DNA from: a virus
Taxonomy: Duplodnaviria; Heunggongvirae; Uroviricota; Caudoviricetes
Direction: 5' to 3' (one strand)
IMG/VR virus record: IMGVR_UViG_2537561946_000006
Length of the DNA stretch: 64,000 nt
In this document: one piece after another, positions 1 through 27,005 of the stretch
Numbering within the stretch: the stretch's first letter is position 1
How the letters are laid out: each line of letters opens with the position of its first letter
Notes under the pieces: generated by a model
The model's input: only the letters and a program-made list of their open reading frames with translations
Database searches by the model: none
What the model was told of the DNA's origin: nothing
Position numbers and translations under genes: made by a program

Positions 1-780
1 ATGCATCGTATAGACACGAAAACCGCGCAGAAGGATAAGTTCGGCGCGGGTAAGAACGGTTTTACCCGTGGTAACCCCCAGACCGGCACGCCTGCCACCG
101 ATCTGGATGATGACTACTTTGACATGTTGCAGGAGGAACTTTGCAGCGTGGTGGAGGCATCCGGTGCCAGCCTGGAGAAGGCGCGGCACGACCAGTTGCT
201 TACCGCGCTTCGTGCGCTGCTGTTAAGCCGCAAAAATCCGTTTGGCGATATCAAATCGGATGGCACGGTGAAAACGGCTCTCGAAAACCTTGGTTTGGGA
301 GAAGGCTCTGCATTACCTGTTGGTGTCCCTGTTCCGTGGCCTTCCGCCACTCCGCCAACAGGCTGGCTGAAATGCAACGGTGCGGTTTTTTCTGCTGAAG
401 AATACCCGGAACTGGCAAAGGCTTATCCGACAAATAAATTGCCTGATTTACGTGGTGAGTTTATTCGTGGTTGGGATGACGGGCGCGGTATTGACGCGGG
501 GCGCGAAATTCTGTCTGCTCAGGGGGATGCTATTCGTAATATAACCGGCACATTTGGTAATGGACAAACCGAAGCTAATGCGGCTATTAGCTTTAATACA
601 GCGAGTGGTGTTTTTGTAAGTCAATCAGCACTTCGTAATACGATAGGTAACACCACAATCATTCCAAATACCCCAAACAATCCTCATTTAGTCAATTTTG
701 ATGCTTCAAGAGTAGTGCCAACTGCCTCAGAGAACAGACCAAGAAACATTGCATTTAACTATATCGTGAGAGCAGCATAA
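1..780 (+). CDS. stf: side tail fibre protein, C-terminal part (5' end outside window); arm currently in expressed orientation
   Basis: ORF reaches window edge; C-terminus ...[14 protein letters not shown] matches the lambda Stf / e14 StfE-type C-terminal domain; invertase crossover site lies inside the gene. Confidence 0.85.
278..303. other. pixL-type invertase crossover site (hix/gix/cix family)
   Basis: CTCTCGAAAACC-TT-GGTTTGGGAGAA, imperfect 26-bp palindrome; inner half is the exact reverse complement of the inner half at 2036-2047. Confidence 0.55.
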
Positions 781-1382
781 TGGATAAAGCAATATTAAAT
801 AGTGGACTTGTTGCTACAAAGGCAGGGGATATTACCGTTTATAACTATGATGGTGAAACGCGGGAATATATTTCCACATCAACTGAATATCTTGCGGTTG
901 GCGTCGGTATCCCGGCATGTTCTTGTTTAGATGCACCAGTTACACATAAAGCTGGTTATACAATTTGCCGTTCTGTGGATTTAAAATCATGGGAATATGT
1001 GTCAGACCATCGCGGTGAAATCGTCTATAACACCGAAACGGGAGACGCCAAAGAAATCACAGCTCCGGGTGATTACCCTGAAAATACAACCACTATCGCC
1101 CCGTTAACGCCATATGATAAATGGGATGGTGAGAAATGGGTGACGGATACTGAGGCACAGCATAGCGCCGCAGTAGAAGCGGCAGAAGCACAGCGCCAGT
1201 CACTGATTGATGCAGCAATGGTTTCCATTAGTCTGATTCAGCTGAAATTACAGGCCGGACGGAAGTTGACGCAGGCAGAAACAACCCGACTTAACGCCGT
1301 GCTGGATTACATTGACGCGGTGACGGCAACAGATACCAGCACCGCGCCGGATGTCATCTGGCCTGAACTGCCGGAGGCGTAG
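780..1382 (+). CDS. tfa: tail fibre assembly protein
   Basis: 200 aa, starts at stf stop, convergent and overlapping with second tfa; typical Tfa size and position. Confidence 0.85.
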   Translation: MDKAILNSGLVATKAGDITVYNYDGETREYISTSTEYLAVGVGIPACSCLDAPVTHKAGYTICRSVDLKSWEYVSDHRGEIVYNTETGDAKEITAPGDYPENTTTIAPLTPYDKWDGEKWVTDTEAQHSAAVEAAEAQRQSLIDAAMVSISLIQLKLQAGRKLTQAETTRLNAVLDYIDAVTATDTSTAPDVIWPELPEA

Positions 1383-1806
1383 GCCATTCAATATCTGGAG
1401 CACTGGAGGTATCAACCAGTTCCAGTGCGTCCAGATAATCCAGCCACAAATTATATTGCGCCAGTTCATCATCTTTCAGACGACCAATAGCGGCTTTACC
1501 GGGCCATTGCTTACTGTTCATGTATTCGTTGGCCTGGTTAATTAGTAGCTGTCTTTCTGATTCTGTAATTTCAATAAGTTCTTCATGCGTGGGTGGAGGA
1601 ATATCTGCCCACGCAGGCAGCCCATCATCTCCGGCAATACGAATTTTTCCTTGTGGCGGTTCAGCCATAAACTCACTGATAATATTTTGATTTACTTCCT
1701 TAGCGTCTGATAAATCCCATCCCTCTGATTTATATTTATCAATCATATCCACAGGGAAAAAAGCATTATGCCTTGCGCTATAAACATATTCGTTCATATA
1801 AATCAC
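1354..1806 (-). CDS. tfa: alternative tail fibre assembly protein (silent orientation)
   Basis: 147-150 aa (ATG at 1797 or 1806); C-terminal ...SSAPDIEWPTPP mirrors ...STAPDVIWPELPEA of the plus-strand Tfa; Mu U/U'-like arrangement. Confidence 0.75.
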   Translation of the reverse strand: MIYMNEYVYSARHNAFFPVDMIDKYKSEGWDLSDAKEVNQNIISEFMAEPPQGKIRIAGDDGLPAWADIPPPTHEELIEITESERQLLINQANEYMNSKQWPGKAAIGRLKDDELAQYNLWLDYLDALELVDTSSAPDIEWPTPPAVQAR

Positions 1807-2035
1807 CCTGAATAAAATTACTCACCAACAGCCCACCAACTGTAATTCATCGATACCGTGTCGCTGGTTGATGACGTTCTGTAAGCAGAATTAAAGCCGG
1901 TTAACGTTGGGCCTTCTGCAGTCATCACGAACCCTCGCCCAGCGCCTAAAGGCGCACCGCCATCACCAGAATGAGTAAGCATGGCTCGTATAACTTCGTA
2001 TAATGTATGCTATACGAAGTTATACGTTTTGCCGC
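1807..2035 (-). pseudogene. remnant of alternative tail-fibre C-terminal arm, interrupted by loxP
   Basis: minus-strand frame from pixR reads GLGEAAKR + loxP peptide ITSYSIHYTKLY then stops; a separate 56-codon frame (MLTHSGDGG...SMNYSWWAVGE) ends at 1807 next to tfa start; arm is far shorter than the 157-codon plus-strand arm. Confidence 0.45.
1990..2023. other. loxP site, 34/34 match to wild type
   Basis: ATAACTTCGTATA-ATGTATGC-TATACGAAGTTAT read directly. Confidence 0.9.
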
Positions 2036-2061
2036 TTCTCCCAAACCAACGTTTATGAAAA
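2036..2061. other. pixR-type invertase crossover site
   Basis: TTCTCCCAAACC-AA-CGTTTATGAAAA immediately upstream of pin. Confidence 0.55.
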
Positions 2062-2115
2062 TGCAGAAATAACGAGCAAATGGCATCATTCCTGCTTTTG
2101 TCAGGGAGATCTACC

Positions 2116-2670
2116 ATGCTTATTGGCTATGTACGTGTGTCAACAAATGACCAGAACACAGATCTACAACGTAATGCGCTGAACTGTGCAGGATGTGAGC
2201 TGATTTTTGAAGACAAGATAAGCGGTACAAAGTCCGACAGACCAGGACTGAAAAAGCTGCTCAGGACATTATCGGCAGGTGACACGCTGGTGGTCTGGAA
2301 ACTGGACCGACTGGGGCGCAGTATGCGGCATCTTGTCGTGCTGGTGGAGGAGTTGCGCGAACGAGGCATCAACTTTCGTAGTCTGACGGATTCAATTGAT
2401 ACCAGTACCCCAATGGGGCGCTTTTTCTTTCATGTGATGGGTGCCCTGGCTGAAATGGAGCGTGAACTGATTGTTGAACGAACAAAAGCTGGACTGGAAG
2501 CAGCTCGCGCACAGGGACGAATTGGTGGACGTCGCCCCAAACTTACACCAGAACAATGGGAGCAGGCCGGACGATTAATTGCATCAGGCGTTCCTCGCCA
2601 GAAGGTGGCGATCATCTATGATGTTGGTATATCGACACTGTATAAGAAGTTTCCGGTCGGAGATAAATGA
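2116..2670 (+). CDS. pin: DNA invertase, serine recombinase of the Hin/Gin/Cin/Pin family
   Basis: MLIGYVRVSTNDQNTDLQ... catalytic Ser near N-terminus, 184 aa, C-terminal HTH; ATG at 2116 preceded by GGGAG. Confidence 0.95.
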   Translation: MLIGYVRVSTNDQNTDLQRNALNCAGCELIFEDKISGTKSDRPGLKKLLRTLSAGDTLVVWKLDRLGRSMRHLVVLVEELRERGINFRSLTDSIDTSTPMGRFFFHVMGALAEMERELIVERTKAGLEAARAQGRIGGRRPKLTPEQWEQAGRLIASGVPRQKVAIIYDVGISTLYKKFPVGDK

Positions 2671-2730
2671 AACCGTAGCACGTCGTATGCAAGAAGATCG
2701 TGCTGCGGTTTATGCTTATCACTTAAAGAC

Positions 2731-3600
<870 letters not shown>

Positions 3601-3683
3601 CTAACCCTTTGAATTTACATAGCGCAAAAAGATACCTTTCCTCATAATGTGAGCTAATTTTATGTTTCGTTTGATGATCGGGT

Positions 3684-3797: not shown

Positions 3798-4823
3798 TTA
3801 CTTGGAATATTTTCTTGGAATATTTTCAGGTAACGGGACATCAAGTGTTGGTGAAACTTTAACCTTCCTGTCATAGATTAGCACTTGCCCTTCGGTTTTG
3901 TGACCAGAGAAAAGTTGCTTATCCCGGCTGCTTCCTTCATAGTCTGAAATTCCTTTCGCCTTCAGATCATGAAAGGTGAAGTCGGTTAAAATACCTGAAA
4001 TTTTGCCTGCGTGATTTCTTGCTTCTACCCACATTTCGTTAAAGCCTTTGTACATATATCGGTTGCCGTATTGATTGCTGATTACATAGGCGGATGTTGG
4101 TAACTGTTTTGCTTTTTCGATCGCCGCCTGTAATCGTGGACTCCATGCTTTTATCTGTTTTTTCCCTGTTTTCCCTTGCTGGATAAAGATCCCGTCGTTT
4201 CCAATCTGCTCCCATTTCAGCGATAACACATCGGAAACCCTCGCTGCACACAGATAGGCAATTTCCATTGCGATAAAAACAGGAAGAGGTGCAACGCTTA
4301 ATACTGCCTGGTATTCTTTGTCGGTTACATATCGTTCGCGGTTTTTGGCCTTGAATTTACTTACACCTGCACATGGGTTAGCCTTCACGTATCCTCGCTC
4401 ATACCCCCAACTATAAACGCGCGACATACTGCTTTTTTCATGGTTTGCCTGCGTTTTACTCTGCTCGCCTCTTTTGTCCATGTATCGTCTGATGTGCTCT
4501 GGTTTTACAGAATCGGCCAGCACCTTACCGAATACGGCCAGCAGCTTTTTTTGATGTTGCAGATAATCTTTTTGAGTTCTAGGACTAAGCTCGCTGTAAT
4601 AGGCGCTGGCGAGAAATTTTTCCCACAAACGCCCAAATGTCATTGCGCGATCGCGATGGTTAACCGTTTCTTCATACTTTTTCCATAATGCGGCTAAACC
4701 ATCCTCGATTGCAGTTAAGGTTACAGATTCTCTGGATGTCGGTTTCCATACATAACTATATTTATTGGGGTATACCTTTGGCGGTAATTTTTCGTGTTCG
4801 GGATTTTTCCTTCGTCTTCCCAT
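3798..4823 (-). CDS. int: tyrosine integrase
   Basis: 341 aa, C-terminal ...FHDLKAKG...LIYDRKV motifs; 3' end faces att core. Confidence 0.95.
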   Translation of the reverse strand: MGRRRKNPEHEKLPPKVYPNKYSYVWKPTSRESVTLTAIEDGLAALWKKYEETVNHRDRAMTFGRLWEKFLASAYYSELSPRTQKDYLQHQKKLLAVFGKVLADSVKPEHIRRYMDKRGEQSKTQANHEKSSMSRVYSWGYERGYVKANPCAGVSKFKAKNRERYVTDKEYQAVLSVAPLPVFIAMEIAYLCAARVSDVLSLKWEQIGNDGIFIQQGKTGKKQIKAWSPRLQAAIEKAKQLPTSAYVISNQYGNRYMYKGFNEMWVEARNHAGKISGILTDFTFHDLKAKGISDYEGSSRDKQLFSGHKTEGQVLIYDRKVKVSPTLDVPLPENIPRKYSK

Positions 4824-14969: not shown

Positions 14970-16043
14970 CTAGGTTAGCCTCTTACGTGCCGAAAGGCAA
15001 GGAGATGTATGGGTCCACCACATATTGCAATTTTTATTCTCTTTTAAAATATATTCCACGGGCGTCATTAGTGCGAGCGCCTTGTGGGGTCTTTTGCTGT
15101 TATACAGCACCAGATATTCCGCCAGCTTCTGGTTAAATAGCGCCAGATCTTCAAAGAGTAAAATCTCATTAAATTCAATAAACTGCTCTCTTAACGTCCG
15201 GTTAAAACGTTCACAGATAGCGTTCATTTTTGGCGTGTAGGGATAGGTCCAGAGGTGTTTGATAGCGGCTTCCTGCAGCGTTTTGTCGAAGTTTCCCAGG
15301 AACTCTTTTCCGTTATCTGTGATTATCTGGCTGATACCGACCGGGAACAACCGGGCTGCGCGGCTGAAGAAGTGATTGACGATATCACTGTTGAGTGACG
15401 GCACAGCCAGCGCCAGCGCGTAATTGCTGCATTCGTCGATCATGGTGATGACATAGCGACGCAGTTCGCCCATTCTGAGCTCAATGGCGTCCATCCCAAT
15501 GAGCTCACCTGTCTTTACCGGGCGGTAGTGCTTTGGCCTGCGGGGTTTGGCAGACCGCTTTTTGACAAGCAGTGCCTTCCCCCGCGATCCCAGACGCACA
15601 GGTATCATCCGCATTTTATCATGTGCGGCAGCGATCATTCTGCCGATGGTGGAAACACTCGGACAGGCCAGATAGCGCTGTTCGCACCAGGGCTTCAGGC
15701 GAACAAAAATCTGCTCTTTACCGAGGTTCGGCAGCTCTGTCCTGAGGCGTCGAATCTCTTTCAGCACATCGGGATGCCAGTGTTTTTTTCGTCGCACCAG
15801 AGGTGCCTTACTGTGCGGGATTAGCCCCTCAGGTCCTTCCTTGTTCAGTAACTGACGCCACCAGTAAAGCGTGCGGCAGGACACGCCAAAGGCTTCAGAA
15901 GCTGCAGAAATACCGTGTTTATCCCAGAAGTGCAGAGCCTTCATTCTCATTGTTGCTATATCAGCCATCACTGAAAGCCTCAACGCATAATCGGCCGTTT
16001 GGTAGTACTTAGGATAGCCAACCATCAGATGCTGCATTTGCAT
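14970..16043 (-). mobile_element. IS transposase gene (DDE integrase-core type, IS481-like); element ends not resolved
   Basis: 357 aa with N-terminal HTH and DDE core ...DNGKEF...; interrupts the nin-region. Confidence 0.75.
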
Positions 16044-16114
16044 AGTGCAATCTCCCCTTACTTATCCGGAGGCAATTGCAATATCTCTGTGAACTTACAC
16101 AGGAGAAGCAGGCT

Positions 16115-16270
16115 ATGAAGCAGCAAAAGGCGATGTTAATCGCCCTGATCGTCATCTGTTTAACCGTCATAGTGACGGCACTGGTAACGAGGAAAGACCT
16201 CTGCGAGGTACGAATCCGAACCGGCCAGACGGAGGTCGCTGTCTTCACAGCTTACGAACCTGAGGAGTAA
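16115..16270 (+). CDS. hok: Hok/Gef-family membrane toxin (HokD/RelF-like)
   Basis: MKQQKAMLIALIVICLTVIVTALVTRKDLCEVRIRTGQTEVAVFTAYEPEE, 51 aa. Confidence 0.85.
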   Translation: MKQQKAMLIALIVICLTVIVTALVTRKDLCEVRIRTGQTEVAVFTAYEPEE

Positions 16271-16437
16271 GAGACCAGGCGGGGGAGAAATCCCTCGCCA
16301 CCGCTGATGTGTCAGGCATCCTCAACGCACCCGCACTTAACCCGCTTCGGCGGGTTTTGTTTTTTCTGGTCGTTCTGGTTTACAATCCATCCGTCAGCCT
16401 GAACAACTGGCACCTGCTGCGCCAGCAGAGAAAACAG

Positions 16438-17776: not shown

Positions 17777-18136
17777 ATGCGTATAGAGTTTGTTTTGCCT
17801 TACCCGCCGACGGTGAACACCTACTGGCGACGTCGTGGCAGCACATATTTTGTATCAAAAGCCGGTGAGCGTTATCGCCGGGATGTGGCACTTATTGTTC
17901 GCCAGCAGCGGCTGAAATTAAACCTGTCCGGAAGGCTGGCGATAAAGATTATTGCCGAGCCACCGGATAAGCGCCGCCGTGACCTGGACAATATTCTGAA
18001 AGCGCCGCTGGATGCGCTGACGCATGCGGGGGTGCTAATGGACGATGAGCAGTTTGATGAAATCAATATTGTACGTGGTCAGCCAGTATCTGGTGGACGG
18101 CTGGGTGTGAAGATTTACAAAATTGAGAGTGAGTGA
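17777..18136 (+). CDS. rusA: RusA Holliday junction resolvase
   Basis: 119 aa, MRIEFVLPYPPTVNTYW...RRRDLDNILKAPLDAL. Confidence 0.9.
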   Translation: MRIEFVLPYPPTVNTYWRRRGSTYFVSKAGERYRRDVALIVRQQRLKLNLSGRLAIKIIAEPPDKRRRDLDNILKAPLDALTHAGVLMDDEQFDEINIVRGQPVSGGRLGVKIYKIESE

Positions 18137-18675
18137 GCGTAAATATGATATATCCGGAAATTACAGGCAAAAGCGGCGAACATTTACGCCTGAACACGCT
18201 GGAAGCAGTCTGGATCCAGGGGAAATTACGGATGTGGGGGCGGTGGTCGTATATCGGTGGGGGTAAATCCGGAAATATGTTTAACCGGTTACTGGTTTCG
18301 AAAAAGCTGACGAAAACAGCAGTTAATGAGGTTTTACGCAGCATGAAGAAATCCGGGCTGGAAAAACCGGAACTTGAGGCATTTTTTCGGGATATGACCA
18401 GAGGGAAGCAGAAGAGCTGGTTGTCACATTGTACAGACACAGAGGCGTTGATTATTGATCGCGTTATCAGTGAGGTGCTTGGGGAATATCCCGGGCTAAT
18501 CAATATTCTCCGGCAAAGGTACGAAGGACGGGGAATGAGTAAGAGAAAAATGGCAGAATGTTTAAATCGTACTCACCCGGAATGGTGTTTCAGCACATGT
18601 GAGAAACGTATTGCAGGTTGGTTAGCCGTGGCTGAACACATGCTTTATGTACCTATGCACGATTCATTTCGATAA
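18133..18675 (+). CDS. late-gene antiterminator Q-like protein
   Basis: 180 aa directly after rusA and before terminator plus late genes; positional. Confidence 0.6.
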   Translation: MSVNMIYPEITGKSGEHLRLNTLEAVWIQGKLRMWGRWSYIGGGKSGNMFNRLLVSKKLTKTAVNEVLRSMKKSGLEKPELEAFFRDMTRGKQKSWLSHCTDTEALIIDRVISEVLGEYPGLINILRQRYEGRGMSKRKMAECLNRTHPEWCFSTCEKRIAGWLAVAEHMLYVPMHDSFR

Positions 18676-18793: not shown

Positions 18794-19264
18794 GTGTCCG
18801 TAATATACAGCAGCGCAATAAATTCGCTGGTGGTTATTAATACCGTTCTTTCAGGTTGCTGGCTTTTTCGACAAGAGTTATTGGTGTGTCACGTTAACCG
18901 GAAAAGGGAAAAAGACATGCTGAAACAGCAGGATATGACAGAAACCGCCAGAGTGGTGTTTAATGAATTAAGCGTTACCGACCCGGCGACAGTCGGGGAG
19001 ATTGCGCAGAATACTTACCTTTCACGCGAACGCTGCCAGTTAATACTGACCCAGCTGGTTATGGCGGGTCTGGCAGACTATCAGTTTGGTTGTTACAGAC
19101 GCCTTCAGTCCTGAAGGCTTTTTTATTTGTGGTAAATGGGCGGCTGGTGGGTGTAAGGGGCACCCACCAGCCATCTGCTCATGCGTTGGGTTCACAAGCA
19201 AACCTCAGGCCCACTGCTTTGCGCAAAAGCAGAATGAGCCTATCAGAGACAGGCTTAATGATCC

Positions 19265-20314
19265 ATGCTTAATACTGTAAAAATATCCAGTTGTGAGTTA
19301 ATCAACGCCGACTGCCTGGAATTTATGCGGTCGTTACCCGAAAATTCTGTTGACCTGATAGTCACGGACCCGCCGTACTTCAAAGTGAAACCCGAGGGCT
19401 GGGATAACCAGTGGGCGGGTGATGAAGATTACCTGAAGTGGCTGGACCAGTGTCTTGCGCAGTTCTGGCGGGTGCTGAAACCTGCCGGAAGTCTTTACCT
19501 GTTCTGTGGCCATCGTCTGGCATCTGACACCGAAATCATGATGCGTGAGCGGTTTAACGTGCTGAACCATATCATCTGGGCAAAGCCGTCCGGACGCTGG
19601 AACGGGTGCAACAAGGAAAGCCTGCGGGCGTATTTCCCCGCCACAGAGCGCATTCTGTTCGCAGAGCATTATCAGGGGCCGTATCGTCCGAAAGATGCCG
19701 GGTATGAGGCGAAGGGTAGGGCACTGAAACAGCATGTGATGGCCCCGCTGATTGCTTACTTTCGTGATGCGCGCGCTGTCCTGGGGATAACGGCAAAACA
19801 GATTGCAGATGCCACAGGAAAGAAAAACATGGTGTCGCACTGGTTCAGTGCCGGTCAGTGGCAGCTGCCGAACGAAAGCGATTATCTGAAATTACAGGCA
19901 CTGTTTGCCCGGGTGGCAGAAGAGAAGCATCAGCGGGGTGAACTGGAAAAGCCCCACCACCAGCTGGTGGATACGTATGCCTCTCTGAACCGACAGTATG
20001 CGGAGCTGCAGAGTGAATATAAGCATCTGCGGCGGTATTTTGGTGTGACGGCGCAGGTGCCGTACACGGATGTGTGGACACATAAACCGGTGCAGTTCTA
20101 TCCCGGGAAACATCCGTGCGAAAAACCGGCAGAAATGCTGCAGCAGATAATCAGCGCAAGCAGTCGTCCGGGTGACCTGGTTGCAGATTTTTTTATGGGC
20201 TCAGGTTCAACGGTAAAAGCGGCACTGGCGCTCGGGCGTCGTGCAATTGGCGTTGAGCTGGAGACTGAACGTTTTGAGCAGACAGTCAGGGAAGTTCAGG
20301 ATTTAATCGTTTGA
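19265..20314 (+). CDS. N6-adenine/N4-cytosine DNA methyltransferase (orphan, phage)
   Basis: IVTDPPYF motif; 349 aa; sits between Q and phage tRNAs. Confidence 0.85.
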   Translation: MLNTVKISSCELINADCLEFMRSLPENSVDLIVTDPPYFKVKPEGWDNQWAGDEDYLKWLDQCLAQFWRVLKPAGSLYLFCGHRLASDTEIMMRERFNVLNHIIWAKPSGRWNGCNKESLRAYFPATERILFAEHYQGPYRPKDAGYEAKGRALKQHVMAPLIAYFRDARAVLGITAKQIADATGKKNMVSHWFSAGQWQLPNESDYLKLQALFARVAEEKHQRGELEKPHHQLVDTYASLNRQYAELQSEYKHLRRYFGVTAQVPYTDVWTHKPVQFYPGKHPCEKPAEMLQQIISASSRPGDLVADFFMGSGSTVKAALALGRRAIGVELETERFEQTVREVQDLIV

Positions 20315-20363
20315 AACGGATGAGATTGCAGAATTAATTTCGCACCATTATTATTCTGGTCCC

Positions 20364-20439
20364 GGCCCTTTAGCTCAGTGGTGAGAGCGAGCGACTCATA
20401 ATCGCCAGGTCGCTGGTTCAAATCCAGCAAGGGCCACCA
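20364..20439 (+). tRNA. tRNA anticodon CAU (Ile2/Met-type, ileZ-like)
   Basis: GGCCCTTTAGCTCAGTGG...ACTCATAATCG...GGTTCAAATCC...AAGGGCCACCA, 76 nt. Confidence 0.9.
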
Positions 20440-20539
20440 TCACATACCGCCATTAGCTTATCAGGAAGAGCAGACGACACCATAACAGGGTTGTTGGTGC
20501 GGGGGCGGGTCCCCGATGGCGGTCCATTATCGGTATTCT

Positions 20540-20616
20540 GCGTTGTTAGCTCAGCCGGACAGAGCAATTGCCTTCTAAGCAATCGGTCAGTGGTTCGACT
20601 CCACTACAACGCGCCA
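20540..20616 (+). tRNA. tRNA-Arg anticodon UCU (argN/argO-like)
   Basis: GCGTTGTTAGCTCAGCC...CCTTCTAAGC...GGTTCGACTCC...ACAACGCGCCA, 77 nt. Confidence 0.9.
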
Positions 20617-20785
20617 CACTTATTTTCCAGGCTCGCTTCGGCGGGCCTTTTTTGTATCTGCGCCACGCCCGGTGCATATCAACCACAGAGCCTTTCGGGG
20701 GTGAGCTTACGGAGTGGTCAGTGTGACTTTCTCTGTGGGCAGATCGCTCCCGGGCGTTGGCTCACCCACCCAAAGGAACGTCACG

Positions 20786-21218
20786 ATGTTTGGTATTTTT
20801 GGTAAAAAAAGCCCGCAGAGCGGCAACGGAAATTAAAAAGTTTGAAAAACGCGATCTGGCACAGGTGGTGATTAACGCCGCATACCTGGTGGCCTGTGCA
20901 GATGGTGAATGTGAGGCTTCCTAGAAAGCGAAGATCGAACAGGTACTGCGTAATCAGCCTGCGCTGTCCGCGTTTACGTCAGAAATTAATGCGATTAGCG
21001 CAACCATTATCGGTCAGCTGGATACGAACTTTAAAATTGGTCGTCGTGCGGCGTTACGTGAGATCGAGGATGTGAAACACGATACGCGTGAAGCGGAAGA
21101 TGTGCTGGATGTGGCGGTGGCCATTGCGGAGGCAGACGGCGAAATTGAGCCGGAAGAGCGCAAGGTGCTGGAAGAGATTGCCGGTGTTCTGGGTCTTCGT
21201 CTGGAGAATCACCTGTGA
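20786..21218 (+). pseudogene. TerB-like domain gene disrupted by frameshift in an A7 run and an in-frame TAG
   Basis: ATG at 20786 stops at 20834; shifting one base in AAAAAAA at 20804-20810 gives MFGIFGKKARRAATEIKKFEKRDLAQVVINAAYLVACADGECEAS-TAG-KAKIEQ...AVAIAEADGEIEPEERKVLEEIAGVLGL. Confidence 0.5.
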
Positions 21219-21382
21219 CGGTAAAACTGCGCCTGACTGTGGCTGCACTCCTGCTGTTTCTGGTGGTGATGGTGGATTTCACCAGCAGAATCATGTCGGT
21301 GCTGGCGGATGGGGTGCTGGTCTGCGGCATTGTGGTATTGCTGTGGCCGGTGATAAAAAGAAACAGCCTGCATAATGCTTGA
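21215..21382 (+). CDS. small hydrophobic protein (GTG start), possible
   Basis: VTVKLRLTVAALLLFLVVMVDFTSRIMSVLADGVLVCGIVVLLWPVIKRNSLHNA, 55 aa. Confidence 0.3.
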   Translation: MTVKLRLTVAALLLFLVVMVDFTSRIMSVLADGVLVCGIVVLLWPVIKRNSLHNA

Positions 21383-21696
21383 TTTTTTTGTTTGCTGTTT
21401 ATTAAAAACACTTCTGCATGGTGAATCCCCCTGTGCGGAGGGGCAATCAGCGAGTAGGTATATGGGATAATCGCGGATTCAGGTGCTGGTACTGAATTCA
21501 CCGGGAGGCACCCGGCACCATGCTTTGCCACAAAAGTGTTATTTCTGTTTTTCTCAAACTATCATCGTTATCCCTTTATTTCCGGCTGCGCATGGCGCGG
21601 CCTTTTTTTTACGACCAGCCACTGGCAGATGGTCATCCTGTGATTTGATTCCGGTTCCGGCTTTTTAACTCTGTTCCTGTACACGGGAGAAATTCG

Positions 21697-23547
21697 ATGT
21701 CGATTAAACATTATGATGTTGTCAGGGCGGCGTCGCCGTCAGACCTTGCGGAAAAGCTGACACACAAACTGAAAGAGGGCTGGCAGCCGTTTGGTAGTCC
21801 GGTGGCCATAACCCCTTATACCCTGATGCAGGCGATTGCAGCAGAAGGTGATGTGGTGGTCAGTGGTGCAACTGAGCCGGATTGGTACTACGTCATCGTA
21901 CTGGCCGGGCAGTCCAATGCAATGGCTTACGGGGAAGGGCTTCCGCTTCCGGATTCATACGATGCTCCGGATCCGCGCATTAAACAGCTGGCGCGCCGCA
22001 GTACAGTTACGCCGGGTGGGGCTGCCTGCAGATATAACGATATTATTCCGGCCGACCACTGCCTGCATGATGTGCAGGATATGAGTACGCTGAATCATCC
22101 GAAGGCAGACCTGAGCAAAGGGCAGTACGGCTGTGTCGGCCAGGGCTTACATATTGCCAAAAAACTGCTTCCGTATATCCCGAATAACGCGGGGATCCTG
22201 CTGGTACCATGCTGTCGTGGTGGTTCTGCATTCACCCAGGGCGCTGAGGGGACATTCAGTGCGGACACGGGGGCCAGCCAGGATTCGGCACGCTGGGGTG
22301 TGGGTAAACCGTTATATCAGGACCTGATTGCGCGCACTAAAGCTGCATTACAGAAGAACCCGAAAAATGTGTTGCTGGCGGTGTGCTGGATGCAGGGAGA
22401 GTTTGACATGAGCGCCGCCACCCACGCACAGCAACCTGCGCTGTTTACAGCCATGCTGACACAGTTTCGTGCTGACCTCTCCGTGTTTAACGCGCAGTGC
22501 CATGGTGGCAGTGCTGCAGATGTGCCGTGGATTTGTGGTGACACGACGTATTACTGGAAAAATACATACGCTACCCAGTACGACACCGTGTACGGCGGGT
22601 ATAAAAACAGGGAGAGTGAGGGCGTTTATTTTGTGCCCTTCATGACAGACGGTAACGGCGTCAATACCGCCACTAACGCGCCGGCAGAAGATCCGGATAT
22701 TCCGGCATCAGGATATTACGGTGCGGCATCGAGAACGAATGGAAACCAGGTATCATCAAACCGCCCGACACATTTCAGTTCATGGGCGCGCAGGAGCATT
22801 ATTCCGGATCGTCTGGCAACCGCTATTCTGAACGCAGCCGGGCGCACCTCAGCCTTCATCAGTGGTAAGGCACCGGAAATCAAACCCTCGCCCGGCGGCA
22901 ACACGCCATCGGGTCCGTCTGCAGATACGTCCGTTCGCACAATCTCCCTGCTGCCGGCAGCCGGAGAGGCTGCTGCGCAGGGCTGGAGCATTAAGGATGG
23001 CGGAATTCAGTTGTCAGATGGTGTATTTAAGATCACCAAGCAGAGCAATAAAACCTGGTCCCTGACGCATCCGGTGGATGACGCAATTACCCTGCTGACA
23101 CAGGGCGGCAGACTGACCTGTAAGTTCCGCCTGTCAGGCGCACTGACCAACAATCAGTTCGGGCTGGGGATTTATCTGTATACGGATGCTCCCGTTCCTG
23201 ATGGTGTGGCGATGACGGGTACCGGTAATCCGTTCCTGATGTCGTACTTCACTCAGACCACTGACGGCAGAGTGAATCTGATGCATCACAGGAAAGCCGG
23301 AAACACGAAGCTGGGGGAGTTCGGCGATTACGGTAACGACTGGCAGACGCTGGAGCTGGTGTTCACCGCCGGCAGTGCCACGGTTACTCCGAAACTGAAT
23401 GGAGTGGCTGGCCCGGCATTCCAGGTTATAAAAGACAGTCTGACACTGGGACTGAATGCGCTGACGCTGACGGATGTTACAAAAAATGCAGCGTATGGCG
23501 TTGAGATAGAAAGTCTGGTGCTGGAGATAAATGCACCGGCAGCATAA
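21697..23547 (+). CDS. nanS-p: prophage sialate O-acetylesterase (NanS-p type, SGNH hydrolase)
   Basis: 616 aa; VLAGQSNAMAYGEG block; position between stx-slot and lysis genes. Confidence 0.8.
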   Translation: MSIKHYDVVRAASPSDLAEKLTHKLKEGWQPFGSPVAITPYTLMQAIAAEGDVVVSGATEPDWYYVIVLAGQSNAMAYGEGLPLPDSYDAPDPRIKQLARRSTVTPGGAACRYNDIIPADHCLHDVQDMSTLNHPKADLSKGQYGCVGQGLHIAKKLLPYIPNNAGILLVPCCRGGSAFTQGAEGTFSADTGASQDSARWGVGKPLYQDLIARTKAALQKNPKNVLLAVCWMQGEFDMSAATHAQQPALFTAMLTQFRADLSVFNAQCHGGSAADVPWICGDTTYYWKNTYATQYDTVYGGYKNRESEGVYFVPFMTDGNGVNTATNAPAEDPDIPASGYYGAASRTNGNQVSSNRPTHFSSWARRSIIPDRLATAILNAAGRTSAFISGKAPEIKPSPGGNTPSGPSADTSVRTISLLPAAGEAAAQGWSIKDGGIQLSDGVFKITKQSNKTWSLTHPVDDAITLLTQGGRLTCKFRLSGALTNNQFGLGIYLYTDAPVPDGVAMTGTGNPFLMSYFTQTTDGRVNLMHHRKAGNTKLGEFGDYGNDWQTLELVFTAGSATVTPKLNGVAGPAFQVIKDSLTLGLNALTLTDVTKNAAYGVEIESLVLEINAPAA

Positions 23548-23994
23548 TAAAAAAAGAGCCAGCGACTGACCTGAAAGAAGACGCTGGCTAAAAGGCCTTA
23601 TATGTTTGTAGAGACTTATTTTTCACAGACAGCAATGATGCCTGTCAATATATTATCAATATGCGGATTGTTTCAGTTACAGATGCTTTATTAAGGAAAA
23701 AAACAGCCAGCACTGACTTTCGGTGGAGAGGTGCTGGCTCAGAAGGATAGTTGGATTTCACATGATACTTATGCCTGGCGGTATATTTTCTGACAGACAG
23801 TGACGGGTGTTGTCAAGATATTGTGTCATTTATAACCTGAATCAGGGGAGGCCGGAATGTTATCTGGCATTTTTAGCAGAGCCTGAATGCCATAATCACG
23901 GCTCCCGGAGTTGGCCGTCAGTGGGTGACACTGGCGGTTTTTTTGTTTTTCTTTACTTTCATTTTCTGTCGGCGGTGACGGAGACATACATCAG

Positions 23995-24201
23995 ATGGAA
24001 AAAATCACAACGGGTGTGTCATACACCACGTCAGCGGTGGGGACGGGATACTGGTTACTGCAGCTGCTGGACAAAGTCTCTCCGTCCCAGTGGGTGGCAA
24101 TCGGTGTGCTGGGGAGTCTGCTGTTTGGCCTGCTGACGTATCTGACTAACCTTTATTTCAAGATTAAAGAAGATAAGCGTAAGGTGGCGCGGGGAGAGTA
24201 G
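23995..24201 (+). CDS. S: pinholin (phage 21 S-type)
   Basis: 68 aa, ...[36 protein letters not shown] closely matches recalled S21. Confidence 0.85.
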
Positions 24202-24456
24202 TCGATGAATAAACAATACGAACTGGTTGTAAAATGAATATTTCTAACTGAAAAAACGTTCCATGAGGTAAGAAAAGGTCACAGGCAATCAATAACAGGA
24301 CGTGATGAAAGACCCTTGCATTTGTGCGCTTTCTCTTTAGATAGCAGCAGATACTGAAAATCTGAGTTGTCGGGGAGTCAGGGATACAGCTGTGCAAGAG
24401 TTGGTCATTGTGATTCCATTGAAATCCTGTATGCCATGAAGGGCAGGATTTTATGG

Positions 24457-24888: not shown

Positions 24889-25422
24889 ATGAACGAAAAA
24901 ATAAAATACGGCCTGTCGGCTGCCGTTCTGGCGCTGATTGGTGCAGGTGCTTCTGCGCCTGAAATCCTCGACCAGTTTCTGGATGAAAAGGAAGGTAACC
25001 ACACCACGGCATACCGTGATGGTGCGGGGATCTGGACCATCTGCCGTGGTGCCATTCTGGTGGATGGTAAGCCTGTTATTCCTGGCATGAAGCTGTCAAA
25101 GGAAAAATGCGACCGGGTTAATGCCATCGAACGTGACAAGGCTCTGGCATGGGTGGAGAAAAACATCCGGGTGCCGCTGACCGAACCCCAGAAAGCGGGG
25201 ATCGCGTCATTCTGTCCGTACAACATTGGCCCCGGTAAGTGCTTCCCGTCGACGTTTTATAAACGAATTAATGCAGGCGATCGAAAAGGTGCCTGTGAGG
25301 CGATTCGCTGGTGGATTAAGGACGGTGGCAGAGACTGCCGTATCCGTTCAAATAATTGCTACGGTCAGGTCTCACGGCGTGACCAGGAGAGCGCGCTGGC
25401 GTGCTGGGACATCGACAGATAG
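24889..25422 (+). CDS. R: signal-anchor-release endolysin (T4-type lysozyme fold)
   Basis: 177 aa, N-terminal hydrophobic SAR segment YGLSAAVLALIGAGASA, lysozyme block EGNHTTAYRDGAGIWTICRG. Confidence 0.9.
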   Translation: MNEKIKYGLSAAVLALIGAGASAPEILDQFLDEKEGNHTTAYRDGAGIWTICRGAILVDGKPVIPGMKLSKEKCDRVNAIERDKALAWVEKNIRVPLTEPQKAGIASFCPYNIGPGKCFPSTFYKRINAGDRKGACEAIRWWIKDGGRDCRIRSNNCYGQVSRRDQESALACWDIDR

Positions 25423-25757
25423 CAGAATATTTTCCTGAAAAATGACGTTGGCCAACGCGGGTGGATAACACGAAATCCTGAAAACTGGTAAAACCTAAGT
25501 GAATAAAAGTAAAAACCCCGTTTGTTGGCAGCAAGCGGGGTTTTGTGTTTTCTGACCTTGAGTAAGGCAAGGGAGAAATTATGGGTAGGGAGGTACTTTC
25601 CCTGTGAGGAAGTATAAAAGATTCTTTCTGAGGTTGTCCATTATGAAAGGCATTGAAGTGGAGACGCCAGCCAGTCTGGATTTAACAAGAGCGGCAGCTT
25701 TTGCCATTCGTATTGTGGCCATTGCTGTTCTGGTCTGGGCAATCCGTTGGTGGTGAT

Positions 25758-26225
25758 ATGAACCGTGTTCTGTGCGTGGTTATCATTGTCCTGCTGGTGG
25801 CCTGTGGTGCGCTTAGTCTGGGGCTGAATCATTACCGTGATCACGCCATCATCTACAAAGAGCAGCGCGATAAAAAAGCCAGTGAGCTGGAGCTGGCGAA
25901 CGCGACAATTACTGATATGCAGATACGCCAGCGTGATGTCGCTGCACTTGATGCCAGATACTCGAGGGAATTAGCCGATGCGAGAGCTGAAAATGAAACT
26001 CTGCGTGCTGATGTTGCCGCTGGTCGTAAGCGCCTGCGGATCAACGCCACCTGCTCCGGTACCGTGCGTGAAGCCACCGGCACCTCCGGCGTGGATAATG
26101 CAACCGGCCCCCGACTGGCAGACACCGCTGAACGGGATTATTTCATCCTCAGAGAACGGCTGATGGCAATGCAGAAGCAACTGGAAGGAGCACAGGAATA
26201 TATCCGTACCCAGTGTATACCGTGA
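25758..26225 (+). CDS. Rz: Rz i-spanin
   Basis: ATG at 25758, N-terminal TM, coiled-coil; Rz1 embedded in +1 frame. Confidence 0.8.
   Translation: MNRVLCVVIIVLLVACGALSLGLNHYRDHAIIYKEQRDKKASELELANATITDMQIRQRDVAALDARYSRELADARAENETLRADVAAGRKRLRINATCSGTVREATGTSGVDNATGPRLADTAERDYFILRERLMAMQKQLEGAQEYIRTQCIP
25993..26163 (+). CDS. Rz1: Rz1 o-spanin lipoprotein (embedded)
   Basis: MKLCVLMLPLVVSACGSTPPAP... lipobox VVSAC, Pro-rich. Confidence 0.7.
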   Translation: MKLCVLMLPLVVSACGSTPPAPVPCVKPPAPPAWIMQPAPDWQTPLNGIISSSENG

Positions 26226-26690: not shown

Positions 26691-27005
26691 ATGCTACATG
26701 ATCACGTGGCAGAATGTCTGGAGAAAAAAGGACTGTACCGGAGAGCAGCTGAACGATGGGCAAAAGTGATGGTACAGCTAAGTGATGACCAGAAAAGAAA
26801 AGTGGCGGCACAGAAACGAGCAGAGTGTTTGCGTAAGGCGCGCCGGACTCCGGTTTCACCGGTGAACCTGACCGAAATAAAACAAGCGGTCAACAGACTA
26901 CATTCTGAGTTGGGAATGGGATTTGAAGAGCGGCGGGTATTCCGACGATATAAAGGGACAGGAGAACAGAATACGTCCGGAAACGCGCGGTCAAAAAAAT
27001 GCTAA
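26691..27005 (+). CDS. pch: PerC-family transcriptional activator (Pch-like)
   Basis: MLHDHVAECLEKKGLYRRAAERWAKVMVQLSDDQKR... matches recalled PerC/Pch; long AT-rich upstream region. Confidence 0.8.
   Translation: MLHDHVAECLEKKGLYRRAAERWAKVMVQLSDDQKRKVAAQKRAECLRKARRTPVSPVNLTEIKQAVNRLHSELGMGFEERRVFRRYKGTGEQNTSGNARSKKC

Follow-up and report, generated by a model that had tools for sequence, protein, structure and literature searches.

The DNA considered here is a 64,000-nucleotide stretch, hereafter the window, from a virus of the Caudoviricetes (IMG/VR record IMGVR_UViG_2537561946_000006). It very probably holds the late region of a lambda-like prophage that is not a Shiga toxin (Stx) phage, in which two accessory genes, tciA and tciB, are carried as cargo at the place where Stx phages keep their toxin genes, and in which tciA is an inherited pseudogene; we put the probability of this reading at about 0.88. 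The host would be an attaching/effacing-type Escherichia coli, and the tciA/tciB pair fills the exchangeable slot that Stx phages use for stx1AB or stx2AB. The first-pass annotation, made from the sequence alone, had reported that no stx A or B subunit is present, and a tblastn search of the whole window with Stx2A and Stx2B as queries bears this out, having returned only chance-level matches (best E = 2.6). With stxA and stxB missing and tciAB as the contents of the slot, the element is not an Stx phage.

The tciA pseudogene and its two lesions

The tciA pseudogene lies at 20786–21218 on the plus strand, with a run of seven adenines (A7) at 20804–20810 and a TAG codon at 20922–20924. For database searches its frame was repaired by deleting a single A and translating the TAG as Glu, which gives a product of 143 amino acids. 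This repaired TciA belongs to the TerB family, matching Pfam PF05099 at 52.7 bits (cut-off 24.4; E = 6.3e-14), the phrog_632 family ‘tellurite resistance’ along its entire length (2.1e-68), and the Klebsiella TerB structure, PDB 2JXU, over residues 15–137 (E = 5.7e-8). In the unrepaired sequence no uninterrupted frame spans the whole TerB domain, the A7 falling after codon 7 and the TAG at codon 46. The window’s tciA is therefore a pseudogene of the TerB family and not a functional member of it; RefSeq likewise labels the gene an ‘internal stop’ pseudogene in strains 14EC007, Z1323HEC0423 and O157:H7 LSU61.

Both lesions were called by alignment with the intact alleles of JLK-2012, O145 RM9872, EDL933 and 2013C-3342. 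Where the window has A7, the aligned intact alleles have either A6 or a variant that is not a homopolymer, and where it has TAG they have GAG, encoding Glu46. This residue is present in all five of the intact alleles translated and sits within the first acidic stretch of the TerB domain (ADGECEASE), a similar stretch (ADGEIEPEE) occurring near the C-terminus. The amber codon removes 98 of the 143 residues and leaves a product of 45. The A7, by comparison, falls in codons 8–9, upstream of the TerB domain (the Pfam match begins at residue 31), and alters only the first 7–8 residues. Its effect on initiation is to shift the start from an ATG placed 8 nucleotides after an AGGA motif to a TTG (20790) placed 12 nucleotides after it. 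In the window allele the ATG frame closes after 16 codons, while the TTG frame closes at the amber after 44. Beyond the TAG, translation could next start in frame at a GTG (21072) and would then yield the last 48 residues only; phage annotations call this fragment as a gene, which accounts for a match to phrog_3920 and for the Sakai gene ECs_5711.

The first-pass annotation had described a TerB-like gene in the slot, broken both by a frameshift in the A7 run and by an in-frame TAG. That the gene is disrupted is evident from the alignments and from its RefSeq status as a pseudogene. The frameshift, on the other hand, stands only in part: the extra A does break the ATG frame, but an open reading frame (ORF) of 142 codons from the TTG remains, and only the TAG is clearly disabling. 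In fact, alleles that combine A7 with GAG, in prophage Sp12 of O157:H7 Sakai (ECs_2265) and in a second EDL933 copy, are annotated as intact genes of 142 amino acids from the TTG. The two lesions are thus not equivalent. The TAG is the disabling change, whereas the A7, to judge from the spacing of the start codons, probably weakens tciA expression and need not abolish it. The extra A disconnects the ATG and leaves only a poorly placed TTG, and the TAG truncates TciA. The TciA made from the window allele is most likely non-functional.

A one-base change in the length of a homopolymer is a typical sequencing error, and the first-pass annotation had pointed out that errors of this kind could mimic the lesions. 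Their distribution was followed through a collection of 5426 complete E. coli genomes, using allele queries built so that the alternative allele could not seed a match. A 55-mer carrying the TAG was found in 577 genomes, at 1006 places and up to 5 per genome, and an exact 94-mer carrying the A7 in 549 records (exact matches counted). The corresponding 55-mer with the sense codon, TCCGAG, was found in 456 genomes at 928 places. A 48-base query for the A6 form was found in 118 genomes, a figure that undercounts intact alleles because many intact copies have another, non-homopolymer N-terminus (MFGIFKKKTRR, as in EDL933 and PPyecE). Intact tciA alleles are about as common as the disrupted allele in the lambdoid prophages of E. 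coli. As for whether TerB-like homologues are intact elsewhere, a check that the first-pass annotation had proposed, they are, in JLK-2012, RM9872, EDL933, PPyecE and 2013C-3342; in the last of these a 143-amino-acid tciA stands in the same architecture of Q, methylase and tRNA genes.

Closely related prophages carry the same lesions. Those of Z1323HEC0423, 14EC017, 14EC047 and 14EC007 match the window over 13 kb at 99.4–99.8% identity, with Z1323HEC0423 (99.8%) the best 13-kb match in the E. coli collection, and all four have both lesions. In O157:H7 Sakai, whose genome was sequenced by the Sanger method, the two occur in separate prophages, the TAG in Sp6 and the A7 in Sp12. The 5′ part of tciA is deleted in Sp6 while the TAG is still present, which puts the amber allele in two structural settings, the window type and the Sp6 deletion. 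The deletion itself runs from just upstream of a 65-amino-acid ORF that follows Q as far as roughly codon 18 of tciA, taking out the methylase gene, the tRNA region and the 5′ end of tciA (positions 3400–3680 of the Sp6 sequence; compare window positions 18830–20840).

Taken as sequencing or assembly errors in a gene that is really intact, the lesions would have had to arise identically in hundreds of independent complete genomes, EDL933 and Sakai among them, and in four near-identical prophages. Moreover, TAG in place of GAG is a substitution and not a homopolymer error. We regard the error explanation as having next to no chance of being right. The A7 and the TAG are real and inherited, and E. 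coli strains of many lineages have lambdoid prophages in which this allele circulates. There is no reason to doubt that the lesions are biological, and inspection of reads, as the first-pass annotation had advised, is needless.

It could be argued instead that the allele still makes a functional TciA, either by starting at TTG-20790 or by slippage of RNA polymerase on the A7, in combination with read-through or suppression of the amber. Such a view can draw on the A7 alleles without TAG, which keep a 142-codon frame and are annotated as genes, on the lack of any further lesion downstream of the TAG, and on the abundance of the TAG allele itself. Several observations speak against it. The two tRNAs of the prophage read AUA and AGA, not UAG; amber suppressors are normally absent from wild E. 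coli, in which basal read-through of UAG stays well below a few percent. The TAG also replaces a Glu kept in every intact allele translated, RefSeq treats the gene as a pseudogene, and in Sakai Sp6 the TAG allele has decayed further by its 5′ deletion. Its abundance can be put down to hitch-hiking, with mobile prophages and within an O157:H7 clone that has been over-sampled. A functional product from this allele is accordingly improbable.

A further suggestion, slightly less probable still, is that the amber A7 allele reflects selection for the loss or strong down-tuning of TciA, or else a role for the 45-residue fragment or a read-through product. Behind it stand the spread of the allele through over 500 genomes, frequently with more than one prophage of a genome carrying it, a frame free of other damage, and the fact that tciB and an adjoining small RNA (sRNA) gene of the STnc100 family are intact. 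If it were true, intact TciA might, for example, be a burden to the lysogen or hinder other prophages resident in the same cell.

The cargo slot, its edges and tciB

The first-pass annotation had likened the late region to that of Stx phages and placed the cargo in the stx slot, and base-level alignment with an Stx1 phage (YYZ-2008) and an Stx2 phage (Stx2_EH2246) upholds both points. On the left, homology to the Stx2a phage Stx2_EH2246 extends over 18819–20675 at 93% identity, covering the 65-amino-acid ORF, the methylase gene, the tRNAs and the hairpin after tRNA-Arg(UCU), and stops 32 nucleotides before the stx2A start. On the right, homology to this phage resumes at a 45-bp element at 21398–21444, located about 87 nucleotides after stx2B there, and then at nanS-p, the gene for a sialate O-acetylesterase. 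The Stx1 phage YYZ-2008 shares 21402–21444, just after its stx1B, and then 21684–24240 at 98% identity; the window’s nanS-p is 97–98% identical to that of Stx1 phages. The region is therefore collinear with Stx-phage late regions in its order of Q, tRNA cluster, cargo, nanS-p and lysis genes, and its flanks are homologous to theirs. Judging from where the alignments break off and resume, the exchangeable cargo slot is the interval of about 20676–21397 (722 bp), which holds only tciA and tciB.

The right edge of the slot is formed by an sRNA gene of the STnc100 family (related to PasD) at 21387–21559 on the plus strand, identified by a match to Rfam RF02076 at 101.5 bits (gathering score 47; E = 1e-21). 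The gene begins 5 nucleotides after the tciB stop, and the 45-bp element common to Stx1 and Stx2 phages is its 5′ end. A gene of this family directly follows stx1B in YYZ-2008 (190.7 bits), stx2B in Stx2_EH2246 (153.8 bits), and tciB in JLK-2012, EDL933 and Sakai Sp12 (102–107 bits). The window’s copy is the shorter form, at 173 nucleotides versus about 215 in the Stx phages (154–191 bits). In a 2026 preprint on Pas sRNAs, STnc100 hits are reported to be common around the PasA, PasC and PasD loci, and TerB genes to be among the conserved neighbors of PasA/PasC loci (10.64898/2026.05.13.724894). With its edges set by the tRNA-Arg(UCU) hairpin and the STnc100-family gene, the slot is one in which tciAB, stx1AB and stx2AB alternate, and it could serve as a landmark for typing late regions.

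Flanks up to 93–98% identical to those of Stx1 and Stx2 phages might also be expected of a former Stx phage that has lost stx, with tciAB as a remnant or as a secondary insertion at the deletion. The same preprint could be cited in favor of such a history, having argued that sRNA/esterase modules derive from Stx phages (10.64898/2026.05.13.724894). Against it, tblastn detected no stx remnant in any frame of the window, and the junctions are clean module boundaries, common to many tci-type prophages that differ in their Q genes, tRNA sets and upstream genes. TciA homologues, furthermore, turn up across a wide range of unrelated phages, among them P1, jumbo phages of Erwinia, and phages of Pseudomonas and Vibrio. 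Loss of stx from an Stx ancestor is thus very unlikely. The pattern fits alternative cargos being swapped by recombination between conserved flanks, an arrangement from which the direction of exchange cannot be deduced.

The second cargo gene, tciB, is intact at 21215–21382 on the plus strand and encodes a DUF3927 protein of 55 amino acids (PF13064, 3.3e-17; phrog_1470 ‘TciB-like’, 5.6e-30), annotated in related genomes as WP_000216653.1. It corresponds to the overlapping 55-codon hydrophobic ORF that the first-pass annotation had seen after the TerB-like gene. Its GTG start overlaps the tciA stop (GTGA), and it has a GGAG of its own 8 nucleotides upstream. The two genes thus have the form of a phage TciA/TciB pair, a TerB-type gene followed by an overlapping gene for a small DUF3927 membrane protein, and the same pair occurs in JLK-2012, PPyecE, Sakai and EDL933. 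Hydropathy places two hydrophobic segments in TciB, at about residues 5–22 and 26–48. The TerB domains of the ter system are viewed as membrane-associated stress proteins that bind metal, and a small partner with two such segments would fit a membrane-associated TciA/TciB complex. A PADLOC search gave no significant defense-system match for either protein. In the literature on tciA/tciB, the sole experimental statement found is that tciABC of phage P1 is non-essential, tciA, tciB and tciC having proved dispensable for lytic growth in a CRISPR interference screen (PMC10695390); one paper on Shiga toxin-producing E. coli merely lists TciA as a strain-specific gene.

With regard to expression, a promoter scan of 20650–20786 found no sigma-70-like site upstream of tciA, its overall counts being no higher than in shuffled sequences. 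The cargo is flanked by two terminator-like hairpins, both found by scanning, on the plus strand and with a T run, at 20629–20656 (the last element in common with Stx2 phages, and the left edge of the slot) and at 21584–21610 (upstream of nanS-p). By analogy with stx, the cargo would be transcribed mainly on the Q-antiterminated late transcript after prophage induction, and tciA and tciB are probably expressed mainly by Q-mediated read-through. With its own GGAG, tciB may still be translated, though upstream translation ends 290 nucleotides earlier. The rest of the module is undamaged, tciB, the STnc100-like sRNA gene, nanS-p and the lysis genes all being intact.

Several points weigh against the view of tciAB as an stx-like cargo with an inactivated tciA. 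In Sakai Sp12 and EDL933, where the A7 occurs without the TAG, the frame stays open over its full length, and so the A7 alone may not inactivate the gene. Outside both lesions the frame is undamaged, and the repaired protein is only a few residues away from intact alleles, differing from the intact EDL933 protein by a few N-terminal residues and one other position. Since the frame is undamaged apart from the TAG, the inactivation of tciA would be recent, or else some residual expression would be tolerated. Dependence on Q is drawn from synteny with stx. Finally, the tci name, which refers to tellurite and colicin resistance and inhibition of cell division, is a homology annotation and does not come from experiment. 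A non-Stx prophage with tciAB in the stx slot and an inherited tciA pseudogene nonetheless remains the reading we favor.

Late-region layout and the rest of the window

The gene order given by the first-pass annotation, from Q through the methylase, tRNA(CAU), tRNA-Arg(UCU), the slot and nanS-p to the lysis genes, was recovered throughout by the ORF listing, a tRNA search and Pfam; all of the late-region features that follow are on the plus strand. It begins with a Q-like late antiterminator of the DUF1133 type at 18133–18675 (Pfam DUF1133, 1.1e-110; Phage_antitermQ, 1.4e-8; phrog_753 ‘anti-termination protein Q-like’, 3.8e-74). Next comes the conserved 65-amino-acid ORF at 18917–19114 (phrog_331, 1.9e-37), a ‘hypothetical protein’ in related genomes, with a terminator-like hairpin at its 3′ end (19101–19118, by hairpin scan). 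The methylase gene at 19265–20314 encodes an N6/N4 DNA methyltransferase (PF01555, 3.6e-44; PADLOC MTase_II, 2.5e-162), and no endonuclease gene was seen beside it.

The tRNA cluster starts at 20364–20439 with a tRNA of anticodon CAU, of the ileZ type and named tRNA-Ile in RefSeq (ARAGORN; Rfam tRNA, 72.5 bits), and ends with an argO-type tRNA-Arg(UCU) at 20540–20616 (ARAGORN; Rfam, 67.3 bits). The 100-nucleotide gap between the two is a decayed copy of argN, the middle gene of the ileZ-argN-argO cluster of Stx phages. This remnant of tRNA-Arg(UCG), at 20447–20526, was recognized by alignment with the intact gene in Stx2_EH2246 and LSU61; its ends are kept and its center is scrambled, and ARAGORN makes no call there. 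The EDL933 locus with an intact tciA likewise has a 100-nucleotide gap between its two tRNAs. In strain 14EC007 the insertion sequence IS421 sits in the argN remnant, with window bases 20502–20513 on both sides of the insertion. The first-pass annotation had overlooked this remnant, as it had the tciA/tciB name of the cargo and the STnc100-family gene after tciB.

Downstream of the slot, the nanS-p type sialate O-acetylesterase gene occupies 21697–23547 and combines DUF1737, SASA and DUF6645 domains. Lysis functions are encoded by a class II holin gene at 23995–24201 (PF04971, 1.9e-32), a lysozyme (endolysin) gene at 24889–25422 (PF00959, 7.6e-24) and an Rz spanin ORF at 25701–26225 (PF03245, 1.2e-48). 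An ATG giving MNRVL… lies about 19 codons inside the Rz ORF, which is listed from a TTG, and embedded in Rz is an Rz1 lipoprotein ORF (25978–26163) whose counterpart in Z1323HEC0423 is annotated in the corresponding position. The Pas preprint locates PasA/PasC sRNAs between esterase and holin genes (10.64898/2026.05.13.724894). The corresponding spacer here, 23548–23994, has terminator-like hairpins at 23851–23868 and 23913–23939, and an Rfam scan of it matched no family.

Elsewhere in the window, a full-length gene for a type III effector of the SseK/NleB family (49987–50967, plus strand; Pfam, 3.3e-181) lies just downstream of the tail-fiber genes, a position typical of the effector-carrying lambdoid prophages of enteropathogenic and enterohemorrhagic E. 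coli. Just after the lysis genes is a plus-strand ORF at 26691–27005 whose equivalent in Z1323HEC0423 is annotated as a PerC-family (Pch-like) transcriptional regulator. On the nin-region side, an IS481-family transposase gene has been inserted at 14970–16043 (minus strand). It adjoins a hokD-type type I toxin ORF at 16076–16270 (plus strand), and a weak isrK-like Rfam match at 16279–16360 (27 bits) falls below the gathering score. Positions 1–3555 form a different phage-like region, with a tail collar domain protein, a resolvase/invertase (2080–2670) and a GIY-YIG protein. The main prophage integrase gene is at 3798–4823 and a second integrase gene at 56060–57220, both on the minus strand. 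Given the separate phage-like start and the two integrases, the window therefore contains more than one mobile element.

Relation to known systems

The tciA/tciB pair, its position in the slot, the label ‘TerB family, internal stop’ and the ileZ/argN/argO cluster are already in public annotation, in records for Sakai, RefSeq, JLK-2012 and PPyecE_EH1910, and the locus is in this sense an ordinary feature. TerB of the terZABCDE cluster, represented by the Klebsiella structure 2JXU, shares the PF05099 domain with the window’s TciA, but the latter comes from a stand-alone gene of a phage, paired with a DUF3927 partner and lacking terC, terD or terZ neighbors. Other phages have TerB-type genes too, those of Erwinia jumbo phages at about 70% identity, and further examples come from phages infecting Pseudomonas, Vibrio, Klebsiella and Salmonella.

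Phage P1, the source of the tci name, has a TciA that is 40–51% identical to that of the window. Its tciABC genes also lie beside phage tRNA genes (trnT and trnI) and a DNA methyltransferase gene (dmt), which echoes the order seen here and may be a coincidence. P1 is nonetheless another type of phage with tci at another locus, and it has a third gene, tciC, along with annotated promoters of its own.

The Stx phages YYZ-2008, H-19B and Stx2_EH2246 share with the window the succession of Q, (methylase), ileZ/argN/argO-type tRNAs, cargo, STnc100, nanS-p, holin, endolysin and Rz, with flanks that are 81–98% identical. The differences lie in the cargo, which is stxAB with or without iraM in the Stx phages and the 722-bp tciAB module in the window, and in the window’s DUF1133-type Q and decayed middle tRNA-Arg.

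The closest counterparts are the tci-type lambdoid prophages, in which, as in the window, tciAB lies between the late-region tRNAs and the STnc100 sRNA gene and nanS-p. JLK-2012 (O55:H7) and PPyecE_EH1910 have annotated tciA and tciB genes, with 96–97% protein identity to the repaired TciA of the window; these two, Sakai Sp12 (ECs_2265) and the TerB-family genes of EDL933 all show the same pair with the same 4-base overlap. What varies among them is the state of tciA, which is intact from its ATG in JLK-2012, PPyecE, one EDL933 copy and 2013C-3342, carries the A7 only in Sp12, and has both A7 and amber in the window. Together with the 5′-deleted form, these alleles (ATG-intact, A7 only, A7 plus TAG) make up a natural series that offers ready-made material for work on the function of TciA and TciB.

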